Source: an uncultured Gemmatimonadales bacterium (lineage in GTDB: Bacteria > Gemmatimonadota > Gemmatimonadetes > Gemmatimonadales > Gemmatimonadaceae). Taken from it: DNA of 64,000 nt. The stretch is from positions 2,914,022 through 2,978,021 of the forward strand of contig CAVTUH010000001.1 in the NCBI GenBank assembly GCA_963737835.1. The letters are read 5' to 3'. Of the stretch, positions 23,001-39,825 are shown piece by piece (the first letter of the stretch is position 1; every line of letters begins with the position of its first letter). Under the pieces are notes generated by a model. The model searched no databases. It worked only from the letters and a program-made list of their open reading frames with translations, and had not been told where the DNA came from. The translations under genes and the position numbers were made by a program.

Positions 23001-23376
23001 CAAGGCAGACACCGGCGAATCTCGCCGGCGGTTTCTCGAGGAGTACAGGCGTGCCGCGGATGGGGGTCTCAGCCTCCACGGCGGGGAGCGCTCGTTCTGG
23101 CTCGGCGACCGGGTCCTGGCGACGCCGTGGTAGTCAGTGGTCGAGCGCGCGGGGAGCGGGCCGGACCACAGTCCTTCGCCTCCGCAGGGTGCGAGGTCGA
23201 CGCGACCGCGTAAGTGCGGCCGATCACCGACAGCATCCCATTTCCGCACAGGGGGGCAGCCGCTAGGGCGGGATCTGGCGCGCCCGCCCGAAGCAACGAA
23301 CGAGAGCGTGTGAGGCGCAGGTGAATCGTCGAGAGCTCGAAGCGACTGAAGTGCGTCGCTCGGCACAGGGGCACAC

Positions 23377-24219: not shown

Positions 24220-24585
24220 TGAACCCTCCCGCGGCGCGGCCGCGTCTGTGTCGGTTCGCTTGTCATTGGATGGTAAACTCCTTCATCATCGCGTAGGCCG
24301 ATGTGCGGCTTGCCATTACGCGCGTCCTAGAGGTGATGAGTGTGGGTGTGGCCCACGCCTCCACTCTGTGGTTGATATGGGTAGGACGTCGCACGTGGCC
24401 GACGTGTGCGGCGAGCTCGACGATGGCGCGAGCGACGCAACTAGCCGTCGGCCATCGAGCGGCGTGCGAAGCCTGTCGAGAGAGGGGTGGCGCGAGCGCT
24501 GGGAATCGTCACGGCCCACAACCTAGGTGCGCCCGACACCGGCCGGCATTGATTGCTCGGTCAATCTTCGCCTACACCGACCGGC

Positions 24586-25215
24586 TTAGCTGAGGTGGAT
24601 TATCCCGCGCTGGAGGGCCACGGTCACGGCTTCAGTCCGGTCGTTCACCCCGAGTTTCTGCAGCACGTGCAGGACGTGGACTTTGACCGTTGCCTCGGTC
24701 CGGCCGATCCGGTTGGCGATGCCCTTGTTCGAGAGTCCCTTCGCAACGAGGTTGAGAACCTCGACCTCGCGCTCGCTCAGGTCGACCCGCGGCGTGAATG
24801 CAGCAAGTCGCTGGGCGACCCCATTGGGCAGCGCGCGCTCGCCGCAATGCACCGAGCGGATCGCGTCGGCCACCTCGTGGCGCAGTGAGTCCTTGAGGAG
24901 ATAGCCCTGGGCGCCTGCCTCGAGCGCGCGATGAATGTCGGCGTCGCCCTGGTACGTCGTGAGCGCGATGATCCGCGCGTCGGGGAACTCGCCGATGATC
25001 TTCTCGGTCGCCTCGGCGCCGCCCATGCGGGGCATGCTCAAGTCCATCAGCGTGACATCGGGCCGGTGGATCCGAAACAACTCGAGCGCTTCGACGCCAT
25101 CGCCCGCTTCGGCCACGAGCTCGAGGTCCGGGTGCAGCGCCAATAATGCGTTCACCCCATCCCGGTACAGCGGATGGTCATCGACCGTCATGACTCGAAT
25201 GGGTGAAGGGGCCAT
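24586..25215 (-). CDS. Two-component response regulator, NarL/FixJ family (REC + LuxR-type HTH)
   Basis: Receiver motifs (VMTVDDH…, DVTLMDLSMP, ALTTY…) and a C-terminal LuxR HTH (EREVEVLNLVAKGLSNKGIANRIGRTEATVKVHV). Confidence 0.9.
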   Translation of the reverse strand: MAPSPIRVMTVDDHPLYRDGVNALLALHPDLELVAEAGDGVEALELFRIHRPDVTLMDLSMPRMGGAEATEKIIGEFPDARIIALTTYQGDADIHRALEAGAQGYLLKDSLRHEVADAIRSVHCGERALPNGVAQRLAAFTPRVDLSEREVEVLNLVAKGLSNKGIANRIGRTEATVKVHVLHVLQKLGVNDRTEAVTVALQRGIIHLS

Positions 25216-25272
25216 CACCGTAGGGGTAGTGCGTGTCGGCAGACGGGACAATACGTCGACCGGTTAATTCTT

Positions 25273-28200
25273 TCAGCGATACGGCACATCGAGCGCCACT
25301 CTCGTGCCGGAGCCTGGCGCGCTCTCCACAGAGAGTCGTGCACCGATCCGGCTGGCGCGCTCGCGCATCCCCAGCAGCCCCCAGTGCCCCGCGCCGGTCC
25401 CGTCGCCGTCGAGCTCGAAGCCGCACCCGTTGTCGGCGATCGTCACGCGCAGGCGGCGCCACCCGTAGTTCAGCTCCACGCGCACATTGCTTGCCGCGGA
25501 GTGCTTGCGTGCGTTCGTGAGCGACTCTTCGACGATGCGGAGCGATTCCGTCTGCACCGCGCGCGAGAGGTGACGCGGCCGGCCGTGCGTCGTGACGTGT
25601 GCGCTCATCCGCGTGTCCGCGACGATCCGGCGCGCGGCGTCATCGCATTCCGTCGCGAGATCCGTCGTGGCGACACCCGGGAGGCGCATATCCCACACCA
25701 CCTCCCGCGCGTGCGACAGCGTCCGATCGATGAGCGAGAGCACGCGATCGAGCAGCGGCTGTTGTGATGACGAGAGCCCGAGGCGGGCCGAGGTGACATG
25801 CAGCTGCAAGGCGATCGCGCCGAATCCCTGAAGCAGCGAGTCGTGGATCTCGCGCGCAAGTCGCGAGCGCTCATCACGGATCGCCGCAGTACGCGTCGCG
25901 AGCAGCACGTAATACACGCTCCACAAGGTGAGCGCCGCGAGCGACGTCATGAGCACCACGAACCAGGCGCGCCGATAGAACGGAGCCTCGACGACAAGTG
26001 AGACGGTCGCTTCTGATGGACTCCACGCGCCGCCCGCCGCACGGCCGATGACGCGGAACCGGTAGTGGCCCGGCGCGAGTCGGGTGTATGCCGCGGCGCG
26101 CTGCGCGCCCGCGTTGGTCCAGCCGGTGTCGAAGCCGTCGAGGCGATACCCGAACCGCACGCCTGGCCCGTTGGCGAGATCGACGCCGGTGTAGCGGATC
26201 TCGACGCGCCGAATACCCGGCGCCAACGTGACCGTCGGCGCGAGTGGCGTGCGCGTGCCATCGAGGTAGACCTCCTCGATGTGCATGAGCGGCGGCTGCA
26301 CGTCGCGCTCGACCTGTTGGGTGGGGTCGACCGTCACGAGTCCGTGTCCCATCGCGAACCAGAGTTTGCCGGCCGCATCCTTGAATGACCACGGGTGCGG
26401 CCAGCCGGCGGGGTCGCCACCGGGCATGCCGTCCAGGGCTTCGAAGCTCGCCGCGGTGGTGAGCGCTGGTTTGCGTCCCTCGGCGACCGCTTCGAGATCC
26501 GCGACGCTCACGCGGGTCAATCCACGGAGCTGGCCGAGCCAGAGATTGCCGAGTCCGTCGAGTTCCGCGGCACCGACCCAGCTCTCGGGCAACCCTCGAC
26601 TCGCGGTCAGGAACACCGGGGGCCCCCCGGTCACGCGGGCGATCCCATCCGCTGTTCCGACCCACACACTGCCCGGTGGCGACTCGAACAACACCAGGGC
26701 GCGCTCGGCGCTGCCTGGCGGCATGGGCTGCGTCACGAAGCGATCGCTGTCATTCACGGCGCGGGCGAGCCCCTTCTGTGTGGCAACCCAGAGTGTGCCG
26801 TGCGCATCGCGGAACAACCGCTGGACTGCGTTGTCGGCGAGGCCATTCTGCGTGGTGAGCACCGTACGCCGCCCGTCCGCAACGCGAACGAGACCGTTCC
26901 ACGTGCCGACCCACAGCGTGCCATCCGCATCCTCGAGCAGCGCCGTCACTGGTGGCAGGCCGGCCAGCCGCTCGGTGGAGCGGGCGCCACCGAAGCGGGT
27001 GACCGTGCCACCCAGTCGGCCCGCCCAAATGGTCCCGCCCTGCCCCACCGCCAGCGCGTTGATGCGATCGGCATGGTTGACGGGCTCGACCGAGGTGAAC
27101 GCGGCGCGACCGCTCGTGACGCGGCCTTTGAACAACCCACCGGTCGGAGGCGCGAGCCATACCACCCCGGATGCATCCTGCACCATCCCTCCGGGCATCG
27201 CTGCAGGAAGTCCGGCGGATGCGGTGACCACGCCGAATGGCACGGGGCGTAATCGGTTGAGCCCATCGCGTGTCGCAACCCAGATATTGCCGGTGCGATC
27301 GACCAAGATGTCGGCGACGCGATCGTCCGAGAGGCCGTCGCAATGCGTGAAGGAAGTGAAGTTGCGTCCGTCGTACCGATAGAGTCCCGCGCCTCGCGTG
27401 CCGATCCAGAGTGCGCCGTCCGGGCTCATCGCGAAGCATGACACCGCGTCGAGCGCCTGCCCCGCAGGGAGTGGAATCCGGCGGAAGTGGCCGTGGCGCC
27501 ATTGCACGATCGCGTTGGGCATGCCGAGCCAAATGGAGCTGTCCGCGGTGGCATAGACACGCCGCACATCGGCGAGCCCGGCCTCGCCCGGGAACGCAAC
27601 CGCCGAGAGACTGTCATGGTGTACGCGGTAGACTTGCGACGCGCCGACGACGATCCAGATGTCGCCGACCGCGTCGACCGTGATGCCGCTGCCCGAGTAG
27701 CTGGTGCTGACGGCACGTCGGATCTCGGGTGACCCGCCGCGCGCCACGCGAAAAACGCGTCCACTGCGCGTCACGGCCCACACAGTCCCGGCGCCGTCGA
27801 CCGCCGCGACGTTGACCTGGTCGGTGCTGAAGGATGAATCGAGGGCGGTCGCGCGGAGCTGCGTGCCGTCGTACGCGAGCATGCCACCGTCAGTGCCGAT
27901 CCAGAGCCGACCCTCGCCATCCTCGAGCAGCGGATAGATCTGGAGATCCGGGTGTCCGCGCAGGAGCGGGAGCGTCGTGCCGTTGAACACCGTGAAGCGC
28001 ACACCGTCGAAGCGGGTGAGGCCCGATTGCGACGAGAGCCAGAGATAGCCGTCGCGCGTCTCGACCAGATTCGACGTGAACGCGAGGCGCAGGCTGTCTT
28101 GCTCATGCCAGACATCGAGATGGTAGTGGCCCGATGCCGTCGAGAGCTCCTGGCTAGCGAGTAGTGGTGGTACCGTGCTGATCGCGGCGACGAGTCGGCA

Positions 28201-28338
28201 CACGAGCGCCGTTGCGAGGCGCAGGCAGCGCCCGCCATCTCGCATCACCGATCGCGTCCTGCTCGGGCGGCGCACCGAGTCCATCGGTTGCGTCCTTTCG
28301 GCCCGCATCGCTCGCGCGAGACGCGCGATCGCCGTCAC
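25273..28338 (-). CDS. Sensor histidine kinase with periplasmic two-component-regulator propeller (Y_Y_Y) repeats, HisKA_3 and HATPase domains
   Basis: 1021 aa. Many WxG/…IW(V)GT… propeller repeats. TM helix ~aa 780. HisKA_3 H-box (EIHDSLLQGF) and ATPase G-boxes at the C-terminus. Forms an operon with the NarL-type regulator. Confidence 0.85.
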   Translation of the reverse strand: MTAIARLARAMRAERTQPMDSVRRPSRTRSVMRDGGRCLRLATALVCRLVAAISTVPPLLASQELSTASGHYHLDVWHEQDSLRLAFTSNLVETRDGYLWLSSQSGLTRFDGVRFTVFNGTTLPLLRGHPDLQIYPLLEDGEGRLWIGTDGGMLAYDGTQLRATALDSSFSTDQVNVAAVDGAGTVWAVTRSGRVFRVARGGSPEIRRAVSTSYSGSGITVDAVGDIWIVVGASQVYRVHHDSLSAVAFPGEAGLADVRRVYATADSSIWLGMPNAIVQWRHGHFRRIPLPAGQALDAVSCFAMSPDGALWIGTRGAGLYRYDGRNFTSFTHCDGLSDDRVADILVDRTGNIWVATRDGLNRLRPVPFGVVTASAGLPAAMPGGMVQDASGVVWLAPPTGGLFKGRVTSGRAAFTSVEPVNHADRINALAVGQGGTIWAGRLGGTVTRFGGARSTERLAGLPPVTALLEDADGTLWVGTWNGLVRVADGRRTVLTTQNGLADNAVQRLFRDAHGTLWVATQKGLARAVNDSDRFVTQPMPPGSAERALVLFESPPGSVWVGTADGIARVTGGPPVFLTASRGLPESWVGAAELDGLGNLWLGQLRGLTRVSVADLEAVAEGRKPALTTAASFEALDGMPGGDPAGWPHPWSFKDAAGKLWFAMGHGLVTVDPTQQVERDVQPPLMHIEEVYLDGTRTPLAPTVTLAPGIRRVEIRYTGVDLANGPGVRFGYRLDGFDTGWTNAGAQRAAAYTRLAPGHYRFRVIGRAAGGAWSPSEATVSLVVEAPFYRRAWFVVLMTSLAALTLWSVYYVLLATRTAAIRDERSRLAREIHDSLLQGFGAIALQLHVTSARLGLSSSQQPLLDRVLSLIDRTLSHAREVVWDMRLPGVATTDLATECDDAARRIVADTRMSAHVTTHGRPRHLSRAVQTESLRIVEESLTNARKHSAASNVRVELNYGWRRLRVTIADNGCGFELDGDGTGAGHWGLLGMRERASRIGARLSVESAPGSGTRVALDVPYR

Positions 28339-28829
28339 CAGCGTGCTGCACAGTGAGCGACACGATCACGTGCGGTCGAGGCCGGTTGTCGAGAGGAAGG
28401 CATCGCGAGCGACACCGATCGCAAACGCAGAATCTGGTGTGCATCCCAACGGATTGTCAAAGGCGCCCGCGACGGCTGGCAGATCTTTGTGCGCTTTTCA
28501 CGGAGGTGTGACAATGGACCCACGAAGGCGATGCCATTCTCACAGCCAGCCACCCCGAAAGCCGGCGCACCGCAAACCAGTGGTGAGGTACGTTGAGCGA
28601 CGAGTGATCCCAGATTAGGCTGGTGCGGCAGGTCTCGATCATCAACGCGACCGGACCCTGGTCGACCCCGAAGTGATATAGGGCGTCACCCACCAGCCGC
28701 TTGCACTGTCCGGCACGGTGTGCGTCTGATTGAACGACGGCTTGAAGCCGTAGAGCTTGGCCGTGCGGACGTGTTGGCGGGGGCGTCCACGGGGCGTTGC
28801 CGGGGTGGCGGGTCGCCAGTCGAATAGTG

Positions 28830-30416
28830 ATGGGACGGATTCAGTCGCTTGTCGGCGCGATGTGGGTGGCCGGTGTGGTCGCGTGCAGCAGCCCGCCGGT
28901 CATCACGTCGCATGCGCCGCTCAATGCGCCCGATCCCTTGCCCCCGGGCGCCGCGGAGTTGCGCCGCGACCTGTTGGTGCTGGCCTCGGATTCGTTTCGC
29001 GGGCGTGAGGCCGGGACGGCGGACGAAGTGCGTGTCGCCGCGTTTCTTGCCGCTCGAGCCGCAGCCCTGGGGCTGACGCCCGCAGGTGACAGCGGCTACG
29101 TCCAGCGCATCCCGCTCATCCGGACGGCCATCGGAAGTGGAACGCAATTCATCGTCCATCCGGCGCATGGCGAAGGGCGGGCGCTCGACGGGCTGCGACC
29201 ACTCATGGAGCTCGGGCCCGGCTACCCTCCGATACGGCGCGAGGCGGAGGGACCGCTCGTCTTCGTGGGGTATGGTCTCGAGCACGCGGATCACGGCGAC
29301 GATCTCGCACACGTGCCCATCGCCGGCCACATCGTCGTCGTTGTCAACGGCGCGCCGCCCACAGCGGACGCATCGCGGCGGGCCGAGCTCGAGTCACCGC
29401 CGGCGATCGCCATTCGCCTGCAGCGGATTCTGTCGCGGCATCCTGCGGGTGTCATCGTGCTGCTCGCGGGCGCGTCCGCCGACCTGTACGACGCGACGAG
29501 CCGCGCGCTCCGGCGGGGGACGCTGAGCGCCGTGGATGCGGCGTCGGGTGTGGACCGCACGGTGGATCTTCCGCACGCGTCGCCGAGTGAGGGCGAGACG
29601 ACGCCCATGATCCTACTGGGCTTGCCCGCGCACGGATCACCCTTGCTTCCCGAGCGGTGGCCGCGCGACGACCGGCCGCAGGGCTTGCACGGGCGATTCA
29701 CCGGCACGGTGGAGGTCAGGCACACGGCCATCCAGTCGTACAACGTGCTGGCTGCGATTCCGGGACGTGACACCGCGCGGCGCAACACGTGGGTTGCCCT
29801 CGGCGCGCACTACGACCATCTCGGCATCCTGCCGGCGTCGCGCGGCGACTCGGTCGCGCACGGGGCCGACGACGATGGTTCCGGATGCGTCGCGCTGCTC
29901 GCAGCGGCGCGCACGCTCATGCAGGGCCCGCGGCCCAGCCGATCCGTGCTCTTCATCTGGCACACCGGTGAGGAGAAGGGGCTCCTCGGGTCCGGGTACT
30001 TTACATCGCATCCGACGATGCCCATCGACTCGCTCGTCGCCTTCATCGATGCGGACATGGTCGGCCGAAACGCGCCCGACTCGCTGTACGTGGTCGGTCC
30101 GGACGTGATGCCTGGAGGTCGCAGTCGCGCGCTCGGGCTGCTCGTCGACTCCGTGAACGCGGCGCTCCCATTGCCGTTCACCTTCAATCGCTCGTGGGAC
30201 GTCGCGACCGATCCGCAACGGATCTACTATCGCGCGGACTCGTATCCCTATGGTGAGCACGGCGTGCCCGTCGTGTTGTTCACCAGCGGCCCACACGCCG
30301 ACTACCACCAGGTCACGGACGTCGCGTCGCGGATCGACTACATGAAACTGGCGCGCGTGTCGCGATTGCTCGTCGGGATCGCGGACGCAGTGGCGGAGCG
30401 ACGGACGAGGCCCTAG
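28830..30416 (+). CDS. M28-family zinc peptidase (PA-domain aminopeptidase), lipoprotein/secreted
   Basis: HYDHLG…DDDGSG…EEKGLLGS…DMVG…H…D metal ligands. Signal/lipobox (VAGVVACSS). Start chosen at the internal ATG 28830. Confidence 0.8.
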   Translation: MGRIQSLVGAMWVAGVVACSSPPVITSHAPLNAPDPLPPGAAELRRDLLVLASDSFRGREAGTADEVRVAAFLAARAAALGLTPAGDSGYVQRIPLIRTAIGSGTQFIVHPAHGEGRALDGLRPLMELGPGYPPIRREAEGPLVFVGYGLEHADHGDDLAHVPIAGHIVVVVNGAPPTADASRRAELESPPAIAIRLQRILSRHPAGVIVLLAGASADLYDATSRALRRGTLSAVDAASGVDRTVDLPHASPSEGETTPMILLGLPAHGSPLLPERWPRDDRPQGLHGRFTGTVEVRHTAIQSYNVLAAIPGRDTARRNTWVALGAHYDHLGILPASRGDSVAHGADDDGSGCVALLAAARTLMQGPRPSRSVLFIWHTGEEKGLLGSGYFTSHPTMPIDSLVAFIDADMVGRNAPDSLYVVGPDVMPGGRSRALGLLVDSVNAALPLPFTFNRSWDVATDPQRIYYRADSYPYGEHGVPVVLFTSGPHADYHQVTDVASRIDYMKLARVSRLLVGIADAVAERRTRP

Positions 30417-30432
30417 CGGACGCTTCGCGCCC

Positions 30433-30471
30433 GAGAAAGGAGAAGCGCAGAAAGGAGAGAGGAGAAAACGG
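30433..30471. repeat. Purine-rich GGA-repeat tract
   Basis: gagaaaggagaagcgcagaaaggagagaggagaaaacgg immediately after the M28 peptidase stop. Confidence 0.55.
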
Positions 30472-30478
30472 CGGGACT

Positions 30479-30503
30479 GGGCGACGCGATGCGTCGCCTT
30501 TTG
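30479..30503 (+). terminator. Rho-independent terminator (REP-derived hairpin + TTTTG)
   Basis: gggcgacgcgatgcgtcgcc stem-loop followed by ttttg, 60 nt after the peptidase stop. Confidence 0.6.
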
Positions 30504-30687
30504 ATTGCAGAACCAATTGTTCGAGACGTCCGTCAGCACTCATCTCCAACGAGTGCTACACAAAGCGTGACACGCTGTTTCGCGCTCGCTTTGCGATCGT
30601 CGCCTACTAAATCGCCCGCGTGTCGAGCAGGCGTGGCACGTTCGGTGTATAAGCGCAGTAGTCGGTACGGCGACGAACGGAGAGACC

Positions 30688-31419
30688 ATGATCCTGGCGA
30701 ACGTCCGACGCACGTTGCAACGCGACGATGCGCAATTAGCCCTTCGGTTGATCGGACACGAGTCGCAGGCGGCATACGATCGCGCGGAGGCGACGCTGCG
30801 CGACCAGGGACTCGATGAGCTGCTCGACGACCCGCGCCTGCTGGCCGGTCTGCTGGAGCGTCGCCCGGGCGTGTGCGCGTCGTATCCGCTGTTCTCCTAC
30901 GTCATCGTGCGGCACGCGCTGTGTGACGTGGGAGAGCGCGATCGCGTGATGGCGGATTTTGTCGCGTCGATCATCATGCACTTCGGTCTGCGGGACCGCG
31001 CGAGCAAGGTGACGGACATCAATGACGAGCAATACGACACGCTCGTGGGCCTCACGGGAGCGACGAGTGGCCCGGATGTGCGCCGCGCATTCCTCGTGCA
31101 GGCACACATGGGCAACTATGCGCTCTGGTTGAGTGGCATGTTCCCCGACTACATCGAGGCACGCCGCTCCCGGCGCGGCGCACCGCCACTCGACTACTAC
31201 GAGGAGATGGGTCGCCGCGGCTACGAGCTCGCCGCGTCGCACCGACTCGCAGCAGAACACGGACTCGCGACACTCTTCACCACGGCGGCGCGTCGTTTCG
31301 GCACGCTTCGGATCGCGCTCAATCGCGTCAGCGACGCGTACTTGTTTCCGAACGCGCATAGTCCGGAGCGTCTCATGCGTCAGGTGCAGGACGAAGCACG
31401 GTGGCGGATGGTGAGTTGA
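30688..31419 (+). CDS. Hypothetical cytoplasmic protein (243 aa)
   Basis: Intact ORF with genome-typical codon bias. No family recognised. Confidence 0.5.
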   Translation: MILANVRRTLQRDDAQLALRLIGHESQAAYDRAEATLRDQGLDELLDDPRLLAGLLERRPGVCASYPLFSYVIVRHALCDVGERDRVMADFVASIIMHFGLRDRASKVTDINDEQYDTLVGLTGATSGPDVRRAFLVQAHMGNYALWLSGMFPDYIEARRSRRGAPPLDYYEEMGRRGYELAASHRLAAEHGLATLFTTAARRFGTLRIALNRVSDAYLFPNAHSPERLMRQVQDEARWRMVS

Positions 31420-31420
31420 C

Positions 31421-31534
31421 GGCAGGGGTCAGGGGTCAGGGGTCAGGGGTCAGGGAACAAACGACGAAGGCCGGTCGCTGTGCGATGCGACCGGCCTTCC
31501 GATTTGTTCCCTGACCCCTGACCCCCGACCCCCG
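31421..31534. repeat. Composite hairpin element: (GGGGTCA)4 G-quadruplex-type arm, 12-bp central stem, (TGACCCC)n arm
   Basis: ggcaggggtcaggggtcaggggtcaggggtcagggaac / gaaggccggtcg-ctgtgcgatg-cgaccggccttc / ttccctgacccctgacccccgacccccg. It occupies the whole gap between two convergent stop codons (31419 and 31538). Confidence 0.85.
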
Positions 31535-31537
31535 TGG

Positions 31538-32464
31538 TTACGGCTTCGGCAGTTGTATCATCGGCATCGCGCTGCCGGAGACTTGCGGCATCTGGCCGTT
31601 CCACTTCTTGGCCATCTCGTATGAGACGAGATTGGGTGTGATGCTCTCGGACAGCAAGCGGTTCGCCTTTGCCTGCGCCTCGGCTTCGCCGAGGATGGCC
31701 TTGGCGTGGCCGGCGGCTTCTATGGAGTCGCCGGTCGCCTGGAACTGTTTCTTCTGGAGCTCGTTCTGTGACGTCAACGCGGCCTGCTGCATCACGTTCT
31801 TCGCGTTGATCGCGTCGATCACGGACTGCGGCGCCCGAATCTCGTTGATGGTGAATTGCTTCACCAGGAAACCGTAGGGCCTCAGGTTCTTCTCCAGCAT
31901 GTCCTGCGTGCGCGTGACCACCTCTGCCTTTTTCGGCCCCAGGATGTCGGCGATCGCTTCGCTGCCGACGACCGTTTGCAAGGCCTGGCGGATGGTCTGC
32001 TTCACGTAGTTGTGCTGGATCGTCTCGATGTTATTGCGGAAGGTCTTGTACAGCTCGGGCACCTGCGCGGCGTCGAGCTCGAAGGACATCGCTACGTCCA
32101 GAGAAACGGGCTGTCCCTCAACGCTATTGACGTTGATTTCCTCGTTGTCGGGCGATCCCTCGGACGGATTTTTCGCGAGCACGAGGGTCTGCATGTAGAT
32201 CGGGTACTCCTCGATGCCGGTCGTCAGCGGATTCCGCGTGTGCAATCCCGCAGTGAGCGGCGTTGCCTCGACACCGCCGCCCGTGCGGCTGATGACAATG
32301 CCCACGTGACCCGGGTGGATGTATGTCACGGTCGTCGGGAGCAGCAGCAGCATGACGACGATGCCCACGACGATCCCAGCGAGTCGGAGCGTGGTGTGGC
32401 CAACACCGCCATCGCCGCCGGCGGATCGCATTTGTGAAAATCGACTTGTGAAGGTGCTAGTCAT
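31538..32464 (-). CDS. SPFH/Band-7 (stomatin/HflK-like) membrane protein
   Basis: N-terminal TM helix followed by an SPFH domain and coiled-coil. Start chosen at ATG 32464. Confidence 0.8.
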   Translation of the reverse strand: MTSTFTSRFSQMRSAGGDGGVGHTTLRLAGIVVGIVVMLLLLPTTVTYIHPGHVGIVISRTGGGVEATPLTAGLHTRNPLTTGIEEYPIYMQTLVLAKNPSEGSPDNEEINVNSVEGQPVSLDVAMSFELDAAQVPELYKTFRNNIETIQHNYVKQTIRQALQTVVGSEAIADILGPKKAEVVTRTQDMLEKNLRPYGFLVKQFTINEIRAPQSVIDAINAKNVMQQAALTSQNELQKKQFQATGDSIEAAGHAKAILGEAEAQAKANRLLSESITPNLVSYEMAKKWNGQMPQVSGSAMPMIQLPKP

Positions 32465-32720
32465 GTACGACCTCCTTAAAGCACTCGGGGCAAATGCGCT
32501 CCCCGCTTGGGAGCAGCACCATGTCAGTGGCGGCGTGAGGCCCGTGCACCGGGCACGTGCGCTCCGCCGCCTGCTCAATGAGGATGCGGTTGCGGGCCTG
32601 CCGCACTCGCAGCCCGAGTGGCGTGAATTGGAGGAGGGCGAAGACCGCGACAACCACTATTGTCGCGACGAGCCCTATAAAGAGTACGCCCTCAAGAACG
32701 ATCTCGACCATAGATAACAA
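32457..32720 (-). CDS. Small membrane protein with C-terminal zinc-ribbon (CPVHG…CPEC), SPFH-operon partner
   Basis: 87 aa, one TM helix. Overlaps the SPFH gene start by 8 nt. Plays an NfeD-like positional role. Confidence 0.55.
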   Translation of the reverse strand: MLSMVEIVLEGVLFIGLVATIVVVAVFALLQFTPLGLRVRQARNRILIEQAAERTCPVHGPHAATDMVLLPSGERICPECFKEVVHD

Positions 32721-32759
32721 TACTGGTGGGGCCGGATTTCGGGGTTTGTGCGGGGGAAT

Positions 32760-32874
32760 GGGACGTTAGACGTTGGACGTTAGACGTTGGAGAACAAACC
32801 GCGAGGGCCGGCTTGCTTCACCGTGGCTGGACTCGAGGTTGTCTTCTAACGTCTAACGTCCAACGTCCAACGTC
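32760..32874. repeat. Composite hairpin element, (GACGTTR)n-arm variant
   Basis: gggacgttagacgttggacgttagacgttggagaacaaacc…central…ggttgtcttctaacgtctaacgtccaacgtccaacgtc. The right arm encodes the last 8 codons and the stop of the C26 peptidase gene. Confidence 0.8.
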
Positions 32875-33644
32875 TGCCGTGTCACTATCGCCTCGGCCAG
32901 CGCGGCGAAGAGCCCGTGGTCGGGGGCCTGGTCGTCGCGCACGAACTCCTCGGGATGCCACTGCACGCCCGTGAGCCACCAGCGGTCGTCATCGGCGCCT
33001 TCCACGGCTTCGACAATGCCGTCGGGCGCGGTCGCCGTCAGGACGAGCCCCGGCGCGAGACGGTCGATCGCCTGGTGGTGGACCGAGTTGACCTGCAGCG
33101 TAGTCGCGCCGAGCGCTCGCGCCACCCGCGAACCCTCGACCACTCGAACTGCGTGCGTGCGCGCGTTGCGCGGGGCATCAGGATCGTGTCCAAGCGCGTG
33201 CGGCCGCTCGCTCGGGATATCCTGAATCAGTGTGCCGCCGAGCGCCACGTTGAGCACCTGAATGCCACGGCAAATGGCGAGCGTCGGGAGTCCTCGCTGC
33301 GACGCCGCAAGGACCGCGGCGATCTCCGTTGCGTCACGCGCGGCGTTGGTTGGGCCCAGGTGCGGACTGGGCGAGGCACCATAGCGGGCAGGGTCCACGT
33401 CCTCTCCGCCGGTCAACACGAGCGCGTCGACCGCATCGAGCACGCGGCCGACCGCCGCCGCCACCGCCGATGCTGTCCCGTTGAACGGCGGAAGGACGAT
33501 GGGCACGAGCCGGGCGCGTTCCAGGATCGCGAGGTAGGCCGCCGGCAATCGCACCCGCGGAACACCGTCGTCGTCCGCGCGGATCGTCGCGGTCACCGCA
33601 ACGATCGGATGCTCGCTGTCCTGCTCGGTGAGGTGTCGAGGCAT
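32853..33644 (-). CDS. Class I glutamine amidotransferase-like / peptidase C26 (gamma-glutamyl hydrolase PuuD-like)
   Basis: Catalytic triad context …LAICRGIQVLN… and …HHQAI… typical of C26/GATase1. Confidence 0.8.
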   Translation of the reverse strand: MPRHLTEQDSEHPIVAVTATIRADDDGVPRVRLPAAYLAILERARLVPIVLPPFNGTASAVAAAVGRVLDAVDALVLTGGEDVDPARYGASPSPHLGPTNAARDATEIAAVLAASQRGLPTLAICRGIQVLNVALGGTLIQDIPSERPHALGHDPDAPRNARTHAVRVVEGSRVARALGATTLQVNSVHHQAIDRLAPGLVLTATAPDGIVEAVEGADDDRWWLTGVQWHPEEFVRDDQAPDHGLFAALAEAIVTRQTLDVGR

Positions 33645-33673
33645 GGCACTGACAATATACGAACGGCGACTGC

Positions 33674-33765
33674 GGGATCAGGGATCACGGGTCGGGGGTC
33701 GGGGGTCAGGGGACGGCGGCTAGCGCCGCCGTAGAAAGGAGAAAGGAGAGAGGAGAGAGGAGACA
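33674..33765. repeat. G-rich heptamer arm (gggatcagggatcacgggtcgggggtcgggggtcagggg), small hairpin, then purine-rich GGA tract
   Basis: In the divergent region between the C26 peptidase and the outer-membrane protein genes. The tract is gaaaggagaaaggagagaggagagaggagac. Confidence 0.6.
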
Positions 33766-33893
33766 AGACGGCACATTGAGGGAACGACTGCTGATCCTGC
33801 GCGGTCGGCCTTGTGTGACGGCGGCTGCGGTGTAACGTGGCGTTACGGCTAGGGCTGGTTGGAACGCGCTCTGGGTCAGGGACTTAGCTCCGG

Positions 33894-35705
33894 TTGGTCA
33901 TGGAGGCTGCTGGCCGAGGGCGCAGGGAGGAACGCACGCGCGAACGAGGATATCCCGTCGCCCTCTGGTGCACGGGAGCGTTGCCGATTGCCATGAGCAT
34001 GGGTCTGACTGTGCCGGGGGGCCTGCTGGCGGCGCAGGACACCTCGCGCGTGGTGAGTCCGTGCGATGGCCGCGTCGTGAGCGCCATCGACATCCAGTCC
34101 CGCGCCCCCTACTACGCTGGATTCGGAGGCGCGTGGCGTCAGCTGGCGCGCGGGCTGACAGCGATACACGCGGTGACGCGGCCGCAAGTAATCCGCAATT
34201 TTCTCGCGCTTCATGTCGGCGAGGCTTGCACGGAGCTTCGGCGGGAGGAGTCGGAGCGCATCCTGCGCGCGCAGCCGTTTCTGGCCGAGGTCCGCGTGAC
34301 GCCGTACGACGACGGTCAAGGCGGAGTACGCGTCGCCGTCGTCACGGCTGACGAAATCTCGCTCCAGGGCGGACTCGCCGTTCGCAGCCAGGCGCCGCAC
34401 TTCACCGCGGCGACACTTGGTGAAGGAAACCTGAGCGGGCAGGGCGTCAGCGTCCTCGGCGCGTGGGCCGACGGCCTGGGACTTCGCGATCGATACTCGG
34501 GGCGCATCACGCAGTACACCGTGTTCGGCAAGCCCTGGGAGTTGTCGCTGCAAGGCACGCGCGACGTCCTGGGCGGATACTGGACCGGCACCTTCGTCCA
34601 TCCGTTCTTCACGGACCTGCAACGCTTCGGATGGATCGCTCAAGCGGGTGAGCGGCGCACATACGTCGGATTCCTCAATGCCGCAACGCCGCTTGCCCCG
34701 TATCTCGACATGCGCCGCCGGTTCGCGCAGGTGGGCGGCGTGGGTCGCGTCCAGGGTGGTCCCGGCCACCTGGCGCTCTTCGGCATGTCGGTCTCCGATG
34801 AGCGTGAAGCGCCTGGGTCGCAGCCGGTGCTGTTGCCGCCCGGGGCTGGCACCCGCCCGGACACCAATCCCGGGCTCGTCGCACGCTACTCGGAGTTCAA
34901 CGCGACCCGGATCAATGTCATCGGCGGGGTCCGAGATGTCCGCTTCCTGCGTGTGCGCGGGTTCGATGCGTTGAGCGGTGAACAGGACATCATGTTGGGG
35001 ACAGAGATCGGCGTGGTGGGTGGACGCAGCGTACACCTGCTCGGTTCGTCGACGAACGACGTGTTCCTGGGCTCGGGCGGGTATGCGGGGATTGGCTCAT
35101 CGCGCTTCTTGTTGGCTGCACAAGCGAGTGGGGAAGCGCGCGACGATCTCGGCTCGGGCGACTGGGATGACATCTTCGTCTCGGGTCGTGGTGCCCTGTA
35201 CTGGAAGCCGGTACCCGTCCACACGGTGGTACTCAGCGAAGAGTACTCGCTCGGTTTCGACTCGCACGTCCCGTTCGCACTCACGTTCGCAGATCCGCGA
35301 GGCGGCGTCCGGGGGTTCACAGGATCGCTGGTCGCCGGCGGCCAGCGCAGTGTGACGAGATTCGAGGAGCGATGGCTCCTCGGCCCCATCAAGTCGATCG
35401 GCGAGATTGGCGTGGCGGGCTTCGCCGACGTCGGACGCATTTGGGCGGAAGGGGTCCCGTACGGTGTGAATTCGCCCACTGCGGTCGGCGTCGGGTTCAG
35501 CGTGCTTGCCGCCATACCGGTCCACTCGAAACGTCTGTGGCGGGTCGACTTCGCGTTTCCCGTCACCTCCGATCCCAACGCCCGATTCAGCGTGCGTTTC
35601 ACGAGCACCAATGGCTCCGAGCGATTCTACATCGAGCCGCGCGACATCGCGCTCGCGCGCACGCAATCGGTGCCGACGCAGATATTCGAGTACCCCGCGC
35701 AATAG
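33894..35705 (+). CDS. Outer-membrane beta-barrel protein, possibly Omp85/FhaC-like
   Basis: Signal-like N-terminus, long Gly/aromatic-rich beta-strand pattern, C-terminal aromatic residue region. Family uncertain and start uncertain (33894 to ~34000). Confidence 0.45.
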   Translation: MVMEAAGRGRREERTRERGYPVALWCTGALPIAMSMGLTVPGGLLAAQDTSRVVSPCDGRVVSAIDIQSRAPYYAGFGGAWRQLARGLTAIHAVTRPQVIRNFLALHVGEACTELRREESERILRAQPFLAEVRVTPYDDGQGGVRVAVVTADEISLQGGLAVRSQAPHFTAATLGEGNLSGQGVSVLGAWADGLGLRDRYSGRITQYTVFGKPWELSLQGTRDVLGGYWTGTFVHPFFTDLQRFGWIAQAGERRTYVGFLNAATPLAPYLDMRRRFAQVGGVGRVQGGPGHLALFGMSVSDEREAPGSQPVLLPPGAGTRPDTNPGLVARYSEFNATRINVIGGVRDVRFLRVRGFDALSGEQDIMLGTEIGVVGGRSVHLLGSSTNDVFLGSGGYAGIGSSRFLLAAQASGEARDDLGSGDWDDIFVSGRGALYWKPVPVHTVVLSEEYSLGFDSHVPFALTFADPRGGVRGFTGSLVAGGQRSVTRFEERWLLGPIKSIGEIGVAGFADVGRIWAEGVPYGVNSPTAVGVGFSVLAAIPVHSKRLWRVDFAFPVTSDPNARFSVRFTSTNGSERFYIEPRDIALARTQSVPTQIFEYPAQ

Positions 35706-35707
35706 GC

Positions 35708-35869
35708 TGGACGTTAGACGTTGAACGTTAGACGTTGGAAAACAACCCTCGAGGGCTAGCGGGATGCGCCGTGGCTGGCCTTCGAAATTTGTTTCCATCG
35801 TCTAACGTCCCAACGTCCCAACGTCCCAACGTCTAATGGCGGGCGACGCATTGCGTCGCCCCTACCCGC
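35708..35869. repeat. Composite hairpin element ((GACGTTR)n-arm variant) immediately followed by a palindromic REP-like copy
   Basis: ggacgttagacgttgaacgttagacgttggaaaac…tttccatcgtctaacgtcccaacgtcccaacgtcccaacgtc, then ggcgggcgacgcattgcgtcgcccctacccgc. Confidence 0.8.
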
Positions 35870-35921
35870 TGGGTAGCAAGCGCCGTGGTCGTTCCCCTAA
35901 CCCCTACGTCCCGACCTTCAG

Positions 35922-37565
35922 TCAGGCCGCGACCTGGGCGACCGACCGGGTTTGCGCGACCGAATTCAAGAACGCCTGATACACCTCGTGCCGCCACCAG
36001 GCACGACTGGCGTGCATCTCGGCCAGTGCGGCGTCGTGCGGGAAGGCGGCTCGGTAGGTGCGATGGGTTGTGAGCGCGTCGTAGACATCGGCAATGCAGA
36101 TGACCTGGGCGGCGAGTGGAATCTCGTCTCCGCGCAGCCGGTCGGGGTAGCCACTCCCGTCCACTTTCTCGTGATGCGATCGGATGATTGTCTTGACATC
36201 CCAGGGGAACTCGACCGATCCCAGCATCTCGAGCCCGTACAATGGGTGCATTTCCATGATCTCCCGCTCCTCGCGCGTGAGCGGGCCAGGCTTGTTCAAG
36301 ATCTCATGCGGCACGCGGACCTTGCCGAGGTCGTGGAGATACGCGCCCAGTCGCACCGTGGTGCGGTCATACTCATCCCAGCCGAGCGCCTCTGAAATCG
36401 CGTCAGCGTATTGGGCGACCCGCTCGGAATGGCCAAAGGTGTATGCGTCAGCCGATTCGATCGATCGGCCCCACCCGGCCACAAGGTCCAGATCAATGCG
36501 CTCCAACGCCGCCATCTTGCCGCCAACGTCCTGCGCATCGGCCCGGGCTCCCCATCTCGTGAAGAGACGGTGGGCGGAATTGAGCATCCGCAGGGCTTCC
36601 TGGTTGCGATCGAGGCGCTGGTACAGGATCGCGAGCTCACGAGTTGCCTCTGCTTCATCGAGGACCGCGCCGCTTTCCGTCGCCATGGCGATCGCTGACT
36701 GCAGGCGGGCTTCGGCGAGGGGGGACGCGCCGGTATCGCGGTAGATCATGCCGAGAAACTTGTACGCTTCGGATCGACCACGCCGTACGCCCAGCTCGTC
36801 GAACAGCTGCAAGGCCTCTTCCGCGCTTCGTCGCGCGTCCTCGTAGCGCTGCAACGCAATATGGACCTCGCTGCGATTGATCAATACAAGGCCGCGCAGT
36901 TGTCGATCGCCCAGTGCGTTGGCGATCTCGAGACTCGCTTCGAAGTAGCGGTCGGCAGCGGCCCATTGTTCCTGATCGGCGTTGATCATGCCGAGGTTGT
37001 GGTACGCCGTGGCGCACATCCGCCTGTCCCCCGCCAATCGGAACGCCTCGAGCGATTGCTCGTAGCACGCGAGCGCCGCTGTAAAATCGCCACGAATGTT
37101 CGCGACGATGCCGAGGTTCTGCTGGATTCGCCCGCGCAGATCCGGCCGGTGTCCGCCGAGTGCCAAGGCCTGCTCGAGCGTCGCTTGTGCCGCGACCGTG
37201 TCGCCGCGCTCGAATTGGATGGCGCCCAAACCGTTCATCGCTTCGGCCGTCAGCTCGATGTCGGGGACGGCCGCTGCGACAGCGCAGCTTTCGCGACAGA
37301 GCTCGAGGGCGGCATCGAAATCCTGCCGCCGGCGCTTGATGGATGCGTGACGACGGAGAGCCTCCGCCTTCGCGGCGAGGTCCCAGGGAGCCGCCGACGC
37401 GCTGGCCGCCGCAGCCGCGTAGGCGCGCGCCGCGTCATCGAGACAACCACGCTGCTCGTGCTCTTTGCCAGATGTGAGTGCCGATTCGGCGGCGCTCAGT
37501 CCTTCCCGGCGGGCTCCTCGCGGCGGGGACGGGACCACAGTCGACCCGTCCGCCTTACTCGGCAA
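35922..37565 (-). CDS. HD-GYP domain phosphodiesterase with N-terminal TPR repeats
   Basis: HD…HDLGK…HHEKVDGSGYP (GYP motif) in the C-terminal half. Multiple TPR-like repeats in the N-terminal 350 aa. Confidence 0.8.
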   Translation of the reverse strand: MPSKADGSTVVPSPPRGARREGLSAAESALTSGKEHEQRGCLDDAARAYAAAAASASAAPWDLAAKAEALRRHASIKRRRQDFDAALELCRESCAVAAAVPDIELTAEAMNGLGAIQFERGDTVAAQATLEQALALGGHRPDLRGRIQQNLGIVANIRGDFTAALACYEQSLEAFRLAGDRRMCATAYHNLGMINADQEQWAAADRYFEASLEIANALGDRQLRGLVLINRSEVHIALQRYEDARRSAEEALQLFDELGVRRGRSEAYKFLGMIYRDTGASPLAEARLQSAIAMATESGAVLDEAEATRELAILYQRLDRNQEALRMLNSAHRLFTRWGARADAQDVGGKMAALERIDLDLVAGWGRSIESADAYTFGHSERVAQYADAISEALGWDEYDRTTVRLGAYLHDLGKVRVPHEILNKPGPLTREEREIMEMHPLYGLEMLGSVEFPWDVKTIIRSHHEKVDGSGYPDRLRGDEIPLAAQVICIADVYDALTTHRTYRAAFPHDAALAEMHASRAWWRHEVYQAFLNSVAQTRSVAQVAA

Positions 37566-38106
37566 CAGCGTACATCGAGAAGTGCGTGATGAGCCCGATG
37601 ACCTTATGCTGAGTCGGGTTCAGGATCGACTCGATGAGACCGAGCAATTTGGTCAACGGGTCGTTCACGTACACGATCGAGAGCGTGCCGGTGGGTTGCG
37701 GATTGCACTGCGCGTAGCTGAGCTGCAATGTCGCCGGCAGCAAGAAGTGCGTGCCTTGCGGCTCGAACTGAACGGCAATCGTATCGCTGGCGAGGGTGTG
37801 CGCCCTGATCGTGGTCGGGGCGAGCAACGCACCCGGTGGCACGTCCAGCTCGTGGGGACCAAATGTCAGCCGCCCCCCGAGCGGGCCAATCACGGCGGAG
37901 CCGCTATCGGGCGTGTTGCCGTTGCAAACGAAGAACGACAGCGAGTCGCCGAGGCCACCTCGCTGACCCACCGCTGCCGATGGTCCTGCGGACGAGACGC
38001 TCGTGGATTGTGGGGCGAGCGGCTGACGGTCGGCGACGCAGGCCACGAGACCAGCGGCAAACACCGCGACAACCGCCGCGACCAGTTGAGAAGTCCTGCG
38101 ACGCAT
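37555..38106 (-). CDS. Hypothetical lipoprotein
   Basis: Signal peptide with lipobox (AAGLVAC). Start overlaps the HD-GYP stop (operon). Start chosen at ATG 38106. Confidence 0.5.
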   Translation of the reverse strand: MRRRTSQLVAAVVAVFAAGLVACVADRQPLAPQSTSVSSAGPSAAVGQRGGLGDSLSFFVCNGNTPDSGSAVIGPLGGRLTFGPHELDVPPGALLAPTTIRAHTLASDTIAVQFEPQGTHFLLPATLQLSYAQCNPQPTGTLSIVYVNDPLTKLLGLIESILNPTQHKVIGLITHFSMYAVAE

Positions 38107-38370
38107 AAGAGATCCCCACCGCTGGTGACGTCGTTCCATACAGCCACCGGCACTCGCCGGGCGACTCGGTAACCCAGACCCATTTGGCAAGGTCGGTGCT
38201 CAACCGAGCTGGACTATAAATCGTTTCCGGCTAACGACCTAGTTGGCGGCTGTCGCGAGGCTTCGACACCGGGGGACCGTGCAAAACGCCAGAAAGTCAG
38301 GCGTTTTGCACGGGGCCAAATCAGGCGACTGTCGGAAGGTGGAAGCGGGGGCGACGGGTTCTTGCTGCCC

Positions 38371-39825
38371 TCAGTCGGCGCCGGCCGTCAGTCGTTTCAG
38401 CGCGGGGATGCACAGCACCAGGAGCACCGCGGCGGCGAACGACATCGCGAGGAGAATCGAGAAGAACACCGTTTGTGGCAGGTGTGAGCCAAGCGCGGCC
38501 AACCAGCCCGCGATCTTGTTTGCGCTGGCGTTGGTCAGGAACCAGGCACCCATGAGAAACGCCATGTAGCGGGCCGGGGCGACCTTGGTGACATACGACA
38601 GGCCGACCGGCGACACGCAGAGCTCACCCAACACGCTGAACAGGTAGAAGAGTGTGAGCCATGCGGGGCTCAAAACGGCGCACGACGCGGCGTGTTGGCC
38701 GAGGCACGTGTCGACTGCACGCCCGGCGATCAGGAGGAAAATGCAGGCAAAACCAATGAGACCGAGGCCGATCGCCATCTTCAAACGCGTCGACGGCTCA
38801 CGATTCACGTCGCGGAGGCGCCGCCACAGATACGCGAAGACCGGCGCGAGGACGATGACGAACAGGGGCTGCGCGGACTGGAACCAACTCGAGGGAATGG
38901 TGGAGGTTCCGACGCGGAGGTCGAGGTACCGTTCCGCGAAGAGATTCAATGAGCTTCCGGCTTGCTCGTACACGGCCCAGAAGAACACGACGAAGACAAA
39001 CATGATGAGGAGCGCGAGCACGCGGCGCTTCTCGTCGGGCGTCAGCTCCGCGGGTCGCGCGCTCGCCCTCGTCCCGGTCGGGAGGTTTGTCGTGGCGGTC
39101 GCCGATTGTGCCGTGGCCTGATGCAAGCCGATGCCGGGCAGGTACCTGTCGCGGTACCAGAGGTAGAGGGCGAGGCCACACAGCATCCCGACACCTGCTG
39201 AGGCGAATCCGAAGCTCCAGCTGCGGGTCGGATCGATGCCGGCGCGCGTCAACACGTCACGCATCGTCTCGCTCTGCGCGAACCATCCCGTGACGAGGGG
39301 TGCGAGAAACGCCCCGAGATTGATCCCCATATAAAAGATCGTGAACCCTGCGTCGCGTCGGCCATCACCGGGCCGGTAGATCTGTCCCACCATCGTCGAG
39401 ACGTTCGGCTTGAAAAAACCGGTGCCGATGACCACGAGCGCCAGGCCGAGCCAGAACGTCGGCACGGTCTGGAACGCGAGCGTGAACTGTCCCGCCGCAA
39501 TGATCAGCGCGCCGATGACCAGTGAGCGTCGTGTCCCGATGAGTCGATCCGCCAGGTATCCGCCACCCAGCGGTGTGAGGAACGCGAGCATCGTGTACCA
39601 GCCGTAGAGATTGTCGGCGTCCGCGTCGTGCCATTTGAGCACATGCACGAGGTACAGGACGAGCAGCGCTCGCATGCCGTAGTACGAAAACCGCTCCCAC
39701 ATCTCGACGAGGAAGAGCAGGCCCAGCCCGCGCGGATGTCCAAGCAGTGCGGTGTCGTCCAGCGCGGGCGGTCGATCGGCAACGGTTGCCACGACGTCGG
39801 CATCGGTGGAGGTCGATATCGCCAT
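38371..39825 (-). CDS. Proton-dependent oligopeptide transporter (POT/PTR2 family MFS)
   Basis: PTR2 signature region …FSYYGMRALLVLYL…, 12 or more TM segments, 484 aa. Confidence 0.85.
   Translation of the reverse strand: MAISTSTDADVVATVADRPPALDDTALLGHPRGLGLLFLVEMWERFSYYGMRALLVLYLVHVLKWHDADADNLYGWYTMLAFLTPLGGGYLADRLIGTRRSLVIGALIIAAGQFTLAFQTVPTFWLGLALVVIGTGFFKPNVSTMVGQIYRPGDGRRDAGFTIFYMGINLGAFLAPLVTGWFAQSETMRDVLTRAGIDPTRSWSFGFASAGVGMLCGLALYLWYRDRYLPGIGLHQATAQSATATTNLPTGTRASARPAELTPDEKRRVLALLIMFVFVVFFWAVYEQAGSSLNLFAERYLDLRVGTSTIPSSWFQSAQPLFVIVLAPVFAYLWRRLRDVNREPSTRLKMAIGLGLIGFACIFLLIAGRAVDTCLGQHAASCAVLSPAWLTLFYLFSVLGELCVSPVGLSYVTKVAPARYMAFLMGAWFLTNASANKIAGWLAALGSHLPQTVFFSILLAMSFAAAVLLVLCIPALKRLTAGAD

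Follow-up and report, generated by a model that had tools for sequence, protein, structure and literature searches.

The 64-kb stretch of DNA analysed here (hereafter the window, meaning all 64,000 nt), which comes from an uncultured Gemmatimonadales bacterium and has a GC content of 66%, carries four hairpins whose arms are tandem arrays of short units, almost always heptamers, each right arm being the reverse complement of the left, and whose core resembles a bidirectional intrinsic terminator. Hairpins of the same architecture occupy an orthologous site in most of the relatives compared, built there from entirely different heptamers, and a change of unit can be found in both arms at once. 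We propose that these elements may act as terminators or as barriers at transcript 3′ ends, with stems built and renewed by 7-nt replication slippage, a reading whose chances we would put at about even. The four copies are a local subset of a wider set of intergenic heptanucleotide tandem arrays and not one sharply bounded family; the class to which they belong, consisting of intergenic heptamer arrays that hug stop or start codons singly or as inverted pairs, is already known, though unexplained.

The four hairpins and their terminator-like core

The elements, with the inner stem-loop of one of them, lie at the following positions in the window:

3464-3581, copy A, G-rich flavour: left arm 3465-3497 (4.7 units of CAGGGGT type), core 3495-3553, right arm 3550-3581 (4.6 units of TCCCTGA); co-directional gap between the accA stop (3615, minus strand) and the PSP1/YaaT start (3458, minus strand)
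31421-31534, copy B, G-rich flavour: left arm 31423-31455 (4.7 units of GGGGTCA, 100% matches), core 31453-31511, right arm 31509-31532; convergent gap 31420-31537 between the stops of a 243-amino-acid open reading frame (ORF; 31419) and of the Band_7 gene (31538)
31466-31499, GC stem-loop inside copy B: stem of 13 bp (10 GC pairs) and loop of 8
32760-32874, copy C, GACGTTR flavour: left arm 32761-32791, core 32789-32846, right arm 32845-32875
35708-35835, copy D, GACGTTR flavour: left arm 35710-35737 (7-mers), core 35737-35796, right arm 35804-35833

The first-pass annotation, made from the sequence alone, had described four full copies of one architecture with complementary right arms and a related core, and all four were recovered as such at these coordinates; it had also assigned the gap types correctly (convergent for B and D, co-directional for A and C). 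Its arm units of 6-7 nt are indeed tandem repeats, but Tandem Repeats Finder (TRF) gives a period of 7, with 3.4-4.7 units, on seven of the eight arms, the exception being copy D, whose right arm is a perfect array of 8-mers (AACGTCCC, 3.8 copies, 100% matches) opposite the 7-mers of the left arm. The 8-mer is a one-base insertion variant that has spread through one arm only. The arms of A, B and C measure 30-36 nt, are 88-97% complementary and lie 41-47 nt apart, according to an inverted-repeat finder. The division into two flavours holds for the four copies, but the window has additional flavours and partial copies (GGGGTCT/GGGTTTG, AGAAAGG and a TCCAACG half copy).

Folding of both strands, a check that had been proposed for these elements, yielded one continuous hairpin for every copy on either strand, with a minimum free energy (MFE) of -65 to -102 kcal/mol and z-scores of -7.4 to -13.9; for each element, none of 200 dinucleotide shuffles was as stable. 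Individual values are -91.9 kcal/mol on the plus and -76.4 on the minus strand for copy A, -96 and -102.3 on the two strands for B, -71.7 and -68.3 for C, and -67.4 and -65.2 for D. The elements had been said to fill their gaps almost to the base, which is true of B, only 1 and 3 nt from the two flanking stops, but not exactly of the others. Copy A leaves 5 nt to the downstream start codon and 33 nt to the upstream stop, and copy D begins 2 nt past the stop of a 603-amino-acid ORF and is followed by a separate repetitive extragenic palindromic (REP) hairpin. Copy C, with the start of an 84-amino-acid ORF (32720) 39 nt to its left, overlaps the end of the peptidase_C26 gene by about 22 nt, so that the stop codon (32853-32855) lies inside the right arm and the last six or so residues (..TLDVGR*) are encoded by the arm.

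The core consists of a GC stem-loop with a junction on each side, the 5′ one rich in A (GGRAACAAAC) and the 3′ one rich in T (GTTTGTTYCC). In copy B the 13-bp stem (GAAGGCCGGTCGC/GCGACCGGCCTTC, 10 GC pairs) is followed by CGATTTGTTC on the plus strand and by GTCGTTTGTT on the minus strand, a terminator-like arrangement in both directions, and the top two matches of a terminator scan over positions 22000-41999 are this core, one per strand. The T-tract of copy B has five T in 8 nt on both strands; T-runs are no longer than 3-4 and are interrupted by G, and the tract of copy A is weak. In 11 cores, comprising A-D and seven from relatives, several of which were located by synteny and not by motif, A makes up 53% of the 5′ junction and T 52% of the 3′ junction, the background being 16.7%, and all 11 fold at -23 to -47 kcal/mol. 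The earlier statement that no U-tract follows the hairpins thus holds for the outer hairpin only, since the inner stem-loop bears TTTGTT-type tracts on both strands, and the judgement that the elements do not look like a classical intrinsic terminator has to be revised for the core. RNAalifold returned no consensus structure for a MAFFT alignment of the 11 cores, because indels shift the pairs out of register.

Core identity between copies is 61-83%, compared with 57 ± 4% (maximum 69%) for shuffled sequences, which agrees with the semi-conserved core and junction noted at the outset. It is 70% within the G-rich flavour, 77% within the GACGTTR flavour and 67% across flavours, arm flavour and core co-varying. 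A core sequence profile (nhmmer) recovered its training set and one untrained member, L005 2237-2355, with GACGTT/CAGCGTC arms, and no further match in the window or in non-Gemmatimonadales loci. The GGRAAC junction is shared by the copies, but in other genomes GGGAAC belongs to the heptamers too, as the variant (CAGGGAA)n. A bidirectional terminator-like hairpin without heptamer arms is found at 38270-38315 of the window (GTGCAAAACGCC..GGCGTTTTGCAC); canonical A/U-flanked hairpins therefore also occur unadorned in this genome.

Turnover at orthologous sites

Syntenic loci were collected through homologues of the Band_7 protein, namely L126 (89% amino acid identity), L127/128 (87%), L129 (84%), L130 and L131 (82%) and L132 (79%), and L004 is an additional syntenic locus with 94% nucleotide identity to the window. 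The closest public relative is the uncultured Gemmatimonadales metagenome-assembled genome (MAG) MFD00731.bin.2.174, contig CAWKMU010000003.1, with which positions 31350-33700 of the window align at 94% mean column identity. At site B, the convergent gap between the Band_7 gene and the gene for the 243-amino-acid protein, the arms are as follows:

Window and L004: GGGGTCA
L126: GACGTTC, plus an unmatched block of three CAGCGCCTAACGTC units in one arm
L127/128: GGCGATT
L129: GGTGGCR
L130: AGAAAGG
L131: CGAAAGG/AGAAAGG
L132: degenerate CT-rich array and a small hairpin only

A heptamer-armed hairpin is thus present in the window and in six of the seven syntenic relatives (not in L132), with an MFE of -39 to -102 kcal/mol and five different heptamers. 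In the relatives, too, hairpins fill convergent gaps to the base (L126 3691-3819 and 7928-8097, L129 7910-8024, L130 7928-8008). This persistence with a swapped heptamer would mean that what matters is the long helix, or the process that makes it, rather than the sequence.

Site C shows how both arms can change together. All four units in both arms of copy C in the window read RGACGTT (GACGTTR arms), and the orthologous element in L126, whose core is 78% identical to that of the window, reads RGACGCT instead, in three to five units of each arm (GACGCTR arms); site D is conserved in L126, with RGACGCT on one arm and a mixture on the other. Within-arm variants occur as well, as in the 8-mer array of the right arm of D (3.8 copies, 100%) and the 14-mer block in one arm of L126 B. 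Arrays thus become homogenised within an arm, as slippage would give, and a unit change can come to occupy both arms with pairing kept; the pattern at sites B and C is covariation at the level of whole arrays.

Not every change is of this kind. In L004, 94% identical to the window, site C is occupied by another element, whose arms are GGGGYCR and whose core is interrupted by a REP, and this element also supplies the peptidase_C26 stop. The element is missing from site C in L129-L131, the gap in L129 being 43 nt. At site A, relatives with 93% and 86% AccA identity have gaps of 326 and 275 nt with unrelated hairpins and a relative with 85% AccA identity has an empty 27-nt gap, so that among the relatives compared copy A is present only in the window lineage. 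Core identity between the window and L126 is 83% at site D, 78% at site C and 61%, the level of shuffled sequences, at site B, where the L126 core resembles the C and D cores of the window instead (68-76%). From these identities, sites C and D have been inherited vertically by the window and L126, and site B looks replaced. Copies are gained, lost or replaced between close relatives. A target-site duplication was looked for in the flanks of the four copies and by comparing the filled and empty versions of site A, and was not found. The comparison with close relatives that the first-pass annotation had called for thus gave presence versus absence at site A and exchanged elements at B and C, and its concern that the elements might not be repeated elsewhere did not apply, further copies being found in the relatives.

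The peptidase_C26 gene ends inside an arm both in the window (32853-32875) and in L004, and its C-terminus differs between them (..AIVTRQTLDVGR and ..AIQTSGVRG) because it ends in different repeat elements. Heptamers containing TGA, TAA or TAG provide a stop in all three frames within three units, since 7 is not a multiple of 3. Arrays can hence supply stop codons and final codons, and so alter protein C-termini between close relatives.

Wider distribution, described repeats and competing explanations

The 7-nt period dominates beyond the four copies. TRF found 39 period-7 arrays of at least 2.8 copies in 207 kb of Gemmatimonadales DNA (the window and 11 loci), compared with at most four of any other period between 3 and 15 and with about one period-7 array per set of shuffled sequence. 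Twenty of the 39 lie within 40 nt of a GC hairpin, as do 24% of random positions. In the window, (AGAAAGG)n occurs at six places, (GGGGTCT/GGGTTTG)n at two, another (GGGRTCR)n array at one, and there is one TCCAACG half copy. The partial and single arrays of note are:

51860-51916: possible degenerate half copy, with junction-like CGATTTCGAGGTCTTCC and right arm TTTCCAACGTCCAACGTCTCACGTCCAGCC, without a left arm
60627-60663, plus strand: single array without an inverted partner
33674-33712, plus strand: single G-rich array, 5.6 units of GGGRTCR, on the non-coding strand 30 nt upstream of the start of peptidase_C26
47542-47580, plus strand: single mixed G-rich array (CAGGGGT CAGGGTT TGGGGTT AGGAGTC), directly upstream of the start of a minus-strand gene
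11669-11687, plus strand: short G-rich array, 2.7 units of GGGGTCT, upstream of a minus-strand gene

The half copy, which lies in a convergent gap with a REP alongside, was missed by the core profile. The G-rich array at 33674-33712 is missing from the 94%-identical relative; in the window it is followed by a hairpin (GACGGCGGCTAGCGCCGCCGT) and then by 4.4 units of AGAAAGG (33674-33763 altogether), the two arrays being non-complementary, which suggests that arrays are added beside hairpins independently on each side.

A search pattern fitted to the four copies matched four loci in the sequence collection, a result with little bearing on copy number. Scanning metagenomes for TCAGGGGTCAGGGAAC gave at least 120 loci, mostly on contigs of about 60% GC from peat and soil, many of them probably from Acidobacteriota. 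Among the matches listed, the motif sits in arrays of mixed CAGGGNN units, GGGAAC being another such unit, (CAGGGAA)n; a partner search over 117 (GGGGTCA)nGGGAAC sites found most to be single arrays, about 9 of 110 sites are long heptamer-armed hairpins with centres unrelated to the Gemmatimonadales core, and GGGAAC was on these grounds rejected as a family-specific core. The single arrays among these matches obey a strand rule: those that follow a stop begin a few nt past it and have the G-rich strand coding, and those that precede a start codon lie just upstream of it and have the G-rich strand non-coding. The single arrays of the window at 60627, 33674, 47542 and 11669 follow the same rule.

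The nearest described counterparts are the G-rich heptamer repeats of Rehm et al. (2015), (GGGAATC)n in Xanthomonas and (GGGGAYT)n in Nostoc, whose function was left open (PMC4692102). They are usually present in about four copies, are intergenic and under-represented in coding DNA, and lie 0-50 bp from a stop (G-rich strand coding) or a start (G-rich strand non-coding), some overlapping the stop; in Xanthomonas, 70-75 of about 185 arrays per genome form convergent inverted pairs capable of a stem-loop, and Nostoc has single arrays (PMC4692102). In close relatives unit number and sequence vary, and the site and the single or paired type are kept; moreover, the starts and ends of Xanthomonas transcripts fall within such repeats more frequently than within controls, a precedent for the reading favoured here (PMC4692102). 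The four copies share with these repeats the 7-nt unit in two or more copies (mode about four; 3.4-4.7 on seven of eight arms), a location within 50 bp of a stop or start including overlap with a stop (copy C), and the convergent inverted pair (arms 88-97% complementary, 41-47 nt apart). By sequence, the GGGNNNN unit is found in A and B but not in C, D or the GGCGATT, GACGTTC and AGAAAGG relatives. They differ further in phylum, in having several flavours per genome, some not G-rich, in the related terminator-like core, and in the complete heptamer change at an orthologous site and the concerted change of two arms; none of these differences appears in PMC4692102. The elements had been taken for an unrecognised repeat; no Rfam family matches, but heptamer arrays and inverted pairs are on record for Xanthomonas and Nostoc (PMC4692102). 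In literature in which subscription journals are incompletely covered, nothing specific was found for Gemmatimonas or Gemmatimonadetes repeats or for the literal repeat, nor was a description found of the occurrence in Gemmatimonadales, multiple and partly non-G-rich flavours, a related terminator-like core, a heptamer swap at an orthologous site or array-level covariation.

TAACTGA heptamers of Beggiatoaceae, cyanobacteria and Bacteroidetes (MacGregor 2015, PMC4679880) are likewise tandem and intergenic, in 2-6 (up to 43) copies and often a few nt from a start, but they use one fixed heptamer in 169 direct sets versus 1 indirect, with a patchy phylogeny, and neither a paired hairpin architecture nor a terminator-like core is described for them. 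Rfam gave no match at gathering score, and in E-value mode only sub-threshold eukaryotic and viral miRNA-hairpin models, that is, generic long-hairpin similarity. CRISPR was rejected on the contiguous 7-nt units, the inversion of the second array and the absence of an Rfam CRISPR match above threshold, and an insertion sequence on anatomy, both as first judged.

Heptamer repeats have a longer history, the cyanobacterial STRR heptamers having reportedly been described by Mazel and colleagues in 1990, after which Mrazek is said to have noted in 2007 that heptanucleotide repeats are over-represented in some bacteria. REP, BIME and REPIN elements are dispersed extragenic palindromes at gene 3′ ends, as are ours, and are mobilised by RAYT/TnpA-REP; REPINs are long hairpins of about 100 nt, with two inverted repeats around a less conserved spacer. 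The roles attributed to this class are termination and protection of mRNA 3′ ends. Our arms, however, are tandem heptamers and not a single 20-40-nt palindrome, and the copies are diverged (core 61-83%) and not near-identical. A GTAG/CGTC REP tag is absent from A and B, and in C and D CGTC occurs only as part of every heptamer; no RAYT gene was seen in the neighbourhoods examined. MITEs (miniature inverted-repeat transposable elements) are similar in being non-coding, intergenic, about 100 nt long, inverted at their ends and polymorphic for presence, but here the ends are simple-sequence repeats of variable length, and the MITE reading was rejected for want of a target-site duplication at A-D or in the filled-versus-empty comparison. 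Bidirectional intrinsic terminators share with the core the GC stem-loop (5-20 bp, short loop), the A-rich 5′ and T-rich 3′ sides and the convergent or post-stop placement; they differ in that our U-tracts are short and G-interrupted, the stem is 25-35 bp longer and the U-tract lies inside a larger helix, activity being predicted only.

In the terminator or barrier reading, the inner GC stem-loop with its A-rich 5′ and T-rich 3′ junctions would present a hairpin followed by a U-tract on either strand, and an outer layer of 3-5 heptamer units on the left, with their reverse complements on the right, would bring the stem to 45-50 bp. Copies B and D, which lie between convergent genes, may make RNA polymerase terminate or pause and hold back 3′ exonucleases, whichever side these come from. 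Copies A and C, in co-directional gaps, would be a leaky barrier, a processing site or a stabiliser, because the next genes start 5 and 39 nt behind and both elements must be read through; roles of this kind have classically been proposed for REP elements. The arms would grow, shrink and homogenise as simple-sequence repeats through 7-nt replication slippage; being complementary from the outset, they would give a longer stem whichever of them expanded, and complementarity would then be maintained by selection for pairing or by hairpin-templated repair. Several observations weigh against this proposal. Copies A and C stand directly before co-directional genes with no room for a promoter, which a strong terminator would silence; the U-rich tracts are short and interrupted (UUUGUU); and the scanned region has no general excess of terminator-like sites (12, with 9.1 ± 3.2 expected). 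The A and T excess at the junctions is partly circular, the family having been recognised by that very motif, and the four copies have no consistent strand bias in folding energy or G-U use that would point to a role at the RNA level. At sites B and C arms and core are wholly different between close relatives, which looks like replacement and not in-place drift, and the same CAGGGNN heptamers are met again in other phyla and at loci unrelated to these, usually as single arrays, a recurrence for which slippage in a local stem does not by itself account.

Such replacement invites the view that the elements are non-autonomous and mobile (MITE- or REPIN-like), a unit of arms and core being copied by a transposase or HUH nuclease encoded elsewhere and targeted preferentially to gene ends or existing hairpins. 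They are indeed dispersed, with related cores (70-77% within a flavour versus 57% when shuffled) that co-vary with the arms and a profile that reaches an untrained member at L005 2237-2355; copy A is confined to the window lineage, with relatives having the 27-nt empty gap or unrelated hairpins, site C of the 94%-identical relative carries a different element, site B cores of the window and L126 are at shuffled level (61%) with C and D at 78-83%, and the window has REPIN-like doublets of a GTAG-tagged REP, with a RAYT-type system probably in the genome. We nevertheless think mobility unlikely: it left no target-site duplication at the four copies or the filled-versus-empty site, no transposase was seen next to any copy in the neighbourhoods examined, copies within the genome are old and diverged (61-73% in the G-rich flavour) instead of forming near-identical bursts, arm unit number and length vary in the fashion of slippage, sites C and D are vertically inherited between the window and L126, and heptamer-armed hairpins of other taxa have unrelated cores. 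The arrays could equally be functionless by-products of a heptamer-specific bias in replication slippage, tolerated between genes beside stable hairpins, with arm complementarity inherited from a pre-existing inverted repeat. The heptamer excess across the window and the 207 kb sampled, with its many single arrays and several flavours, fits this, as do the 20 of 39 arrays within 40 nt of a GC hairpin (24% at random), the asymmetric arms (8-mers in D, 14-mers in L126 B), loss without obvious replacement (site C in L129-L131, site A in L137) and Mrazek's polymerase-footprint idea as cited in PMC4692102. It is doubtful all the same, given that six of seven syntenic relatives have kept a heptamer-armed hairpin at site B (L132 having a degenerate array only), that the concerted change at site C preserves pairing in two arms, and that placement at stop and start codons is tight, with a consistent strand rule.

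Less probable again is a dedicated DNA-level process that would make and renew heptamer-armed hairpins and be common to several phyla (Gemmatimonadota, probably Acidobacteriota, Xanthomonas and cyanobacteria), for example an enzyme or selfish system that would target terminator or REP-type hairpins and lay complementary 7-nt arrays on both sides; it would jointly explain the strict 7-nt unit, heptamers recurring at unrelated loci, replacement of flavour within about 6% divergence and the concerted arms. We give very little credence to G-quadruplexes (G4) formed by a G-rich arm, in DNA or RNA, to tune transcription or translation, an idea put forward for the GGGAATC and GGGGAYT repeats: the (GGGGTCA)4-5 arms of A and B satisfy the rule of four G3+N1-7 blocks with about four units, as in Xanthomonas (PMC4692102), but C and D (GACGTTR) and the GGCGATT, AGAAAGG and GACGTTC arms at site B have the same architecture and position without G-runs, and the G-rich arm is predicted to be fully base-paired in the hairpin; a G4-only reading was rejected, half of the copies and most orthologous variants having no G-runs. 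Binding of the heptamers by a sequence-specific regulator or RNA-binding protein, the hairpin being incidental, is hardly more credible. Heptameric direct repeats are bound by proteins in other systems (SARP regulators), and translational regulators have been proposed for TAACTGA repeats (PMC4679880), but here the heptamer changes completely at orthologous sites of close relatives with the architecture unaltered, and several unrelated flavours coexist within one 64-kb window.

Should the elements be terminators or insulators, soil bacteria with gene-dense, high-GC genomes would be making strong bidirectional transcript barriers out of self-renewing simple repeats, a matter of relevance to the prediction of terminators and the annotation of operons in uncultured phyla; should they instead be mobile or made by an enzyme, they would represent a new kind of small-repeat dynamics.

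Other repeat families and neighbouring genes

Housekeeping genes adjoin the elements (accA, PSP1/YaaT, a Band_7/HflC-type gene, peptidase_C26 and the gene for an HD-TPR protein), and the best named homologues of the flanking proteins belong to Gemmatimonadaceae and Gemmatimonadales MAGs. Our gene calls, which are crude and based on GC at third codon positions (GC3), mislabel some coding DNA as intergenic and were used solely in the vicinity of the elements, where they match the gene models of relatives. The PSP1 start near copy A is presumably right, its N-terminus, MHLIEVAFKG, resembling that of YaaT of B. subtilis.

A second family, separate from the heptamer-armed hairpins, is a GTAG-tagged REP (GGTAGGGGCGACGCAnnGCGTCGCCC), found as follows:

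333-473 and 11743-11885 in the window: inverted doublets, 77-85 nt apart (REPIN architecture)
1086-1233 in L126
Near 9580-9607, 19783-19812, 30479-30499, 35838-35866 and 51800-51826: single copies
47758-47906: three-copy tandem, 65-67 nt

The REPIN architecture of the doublets makes it probable that this genome has a RAYT-type system. A GTAG-REP is also what is inserted within the core of the site C hairpin in L004.

In a third composite, a short hairpin of GC type, in many cases centred on GCTAGC (e.g. CGACGCGCGCTAGCGCGCGTCG), is directly followed by a purine-rich heptamer array, (AGAAAGG/AGAGAGG)n, with many GGAG motifs:

22858-23025 (88-nt unit, 1.9 copies), 30417-30467, 33713-33763, 50504-50553 and 53939-53995 in the window
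5220-5276 in L004
10637-10744 in L126

Its orientation to genes is inconsistent, and its AGAAAGG heptamer also forms the site B arms in L130 and L131. In L129, an array of 10.4 units of CCGATCA (1482-1554) lies between two ABC-transporter ATPase genes and runs into the called downstream start. Finally, the gap between a dnaE-like gene and accA in the window contains a perfect 15-nt direct repeat (4672-4701, two copies of ACAAGTGGCAAATCG).

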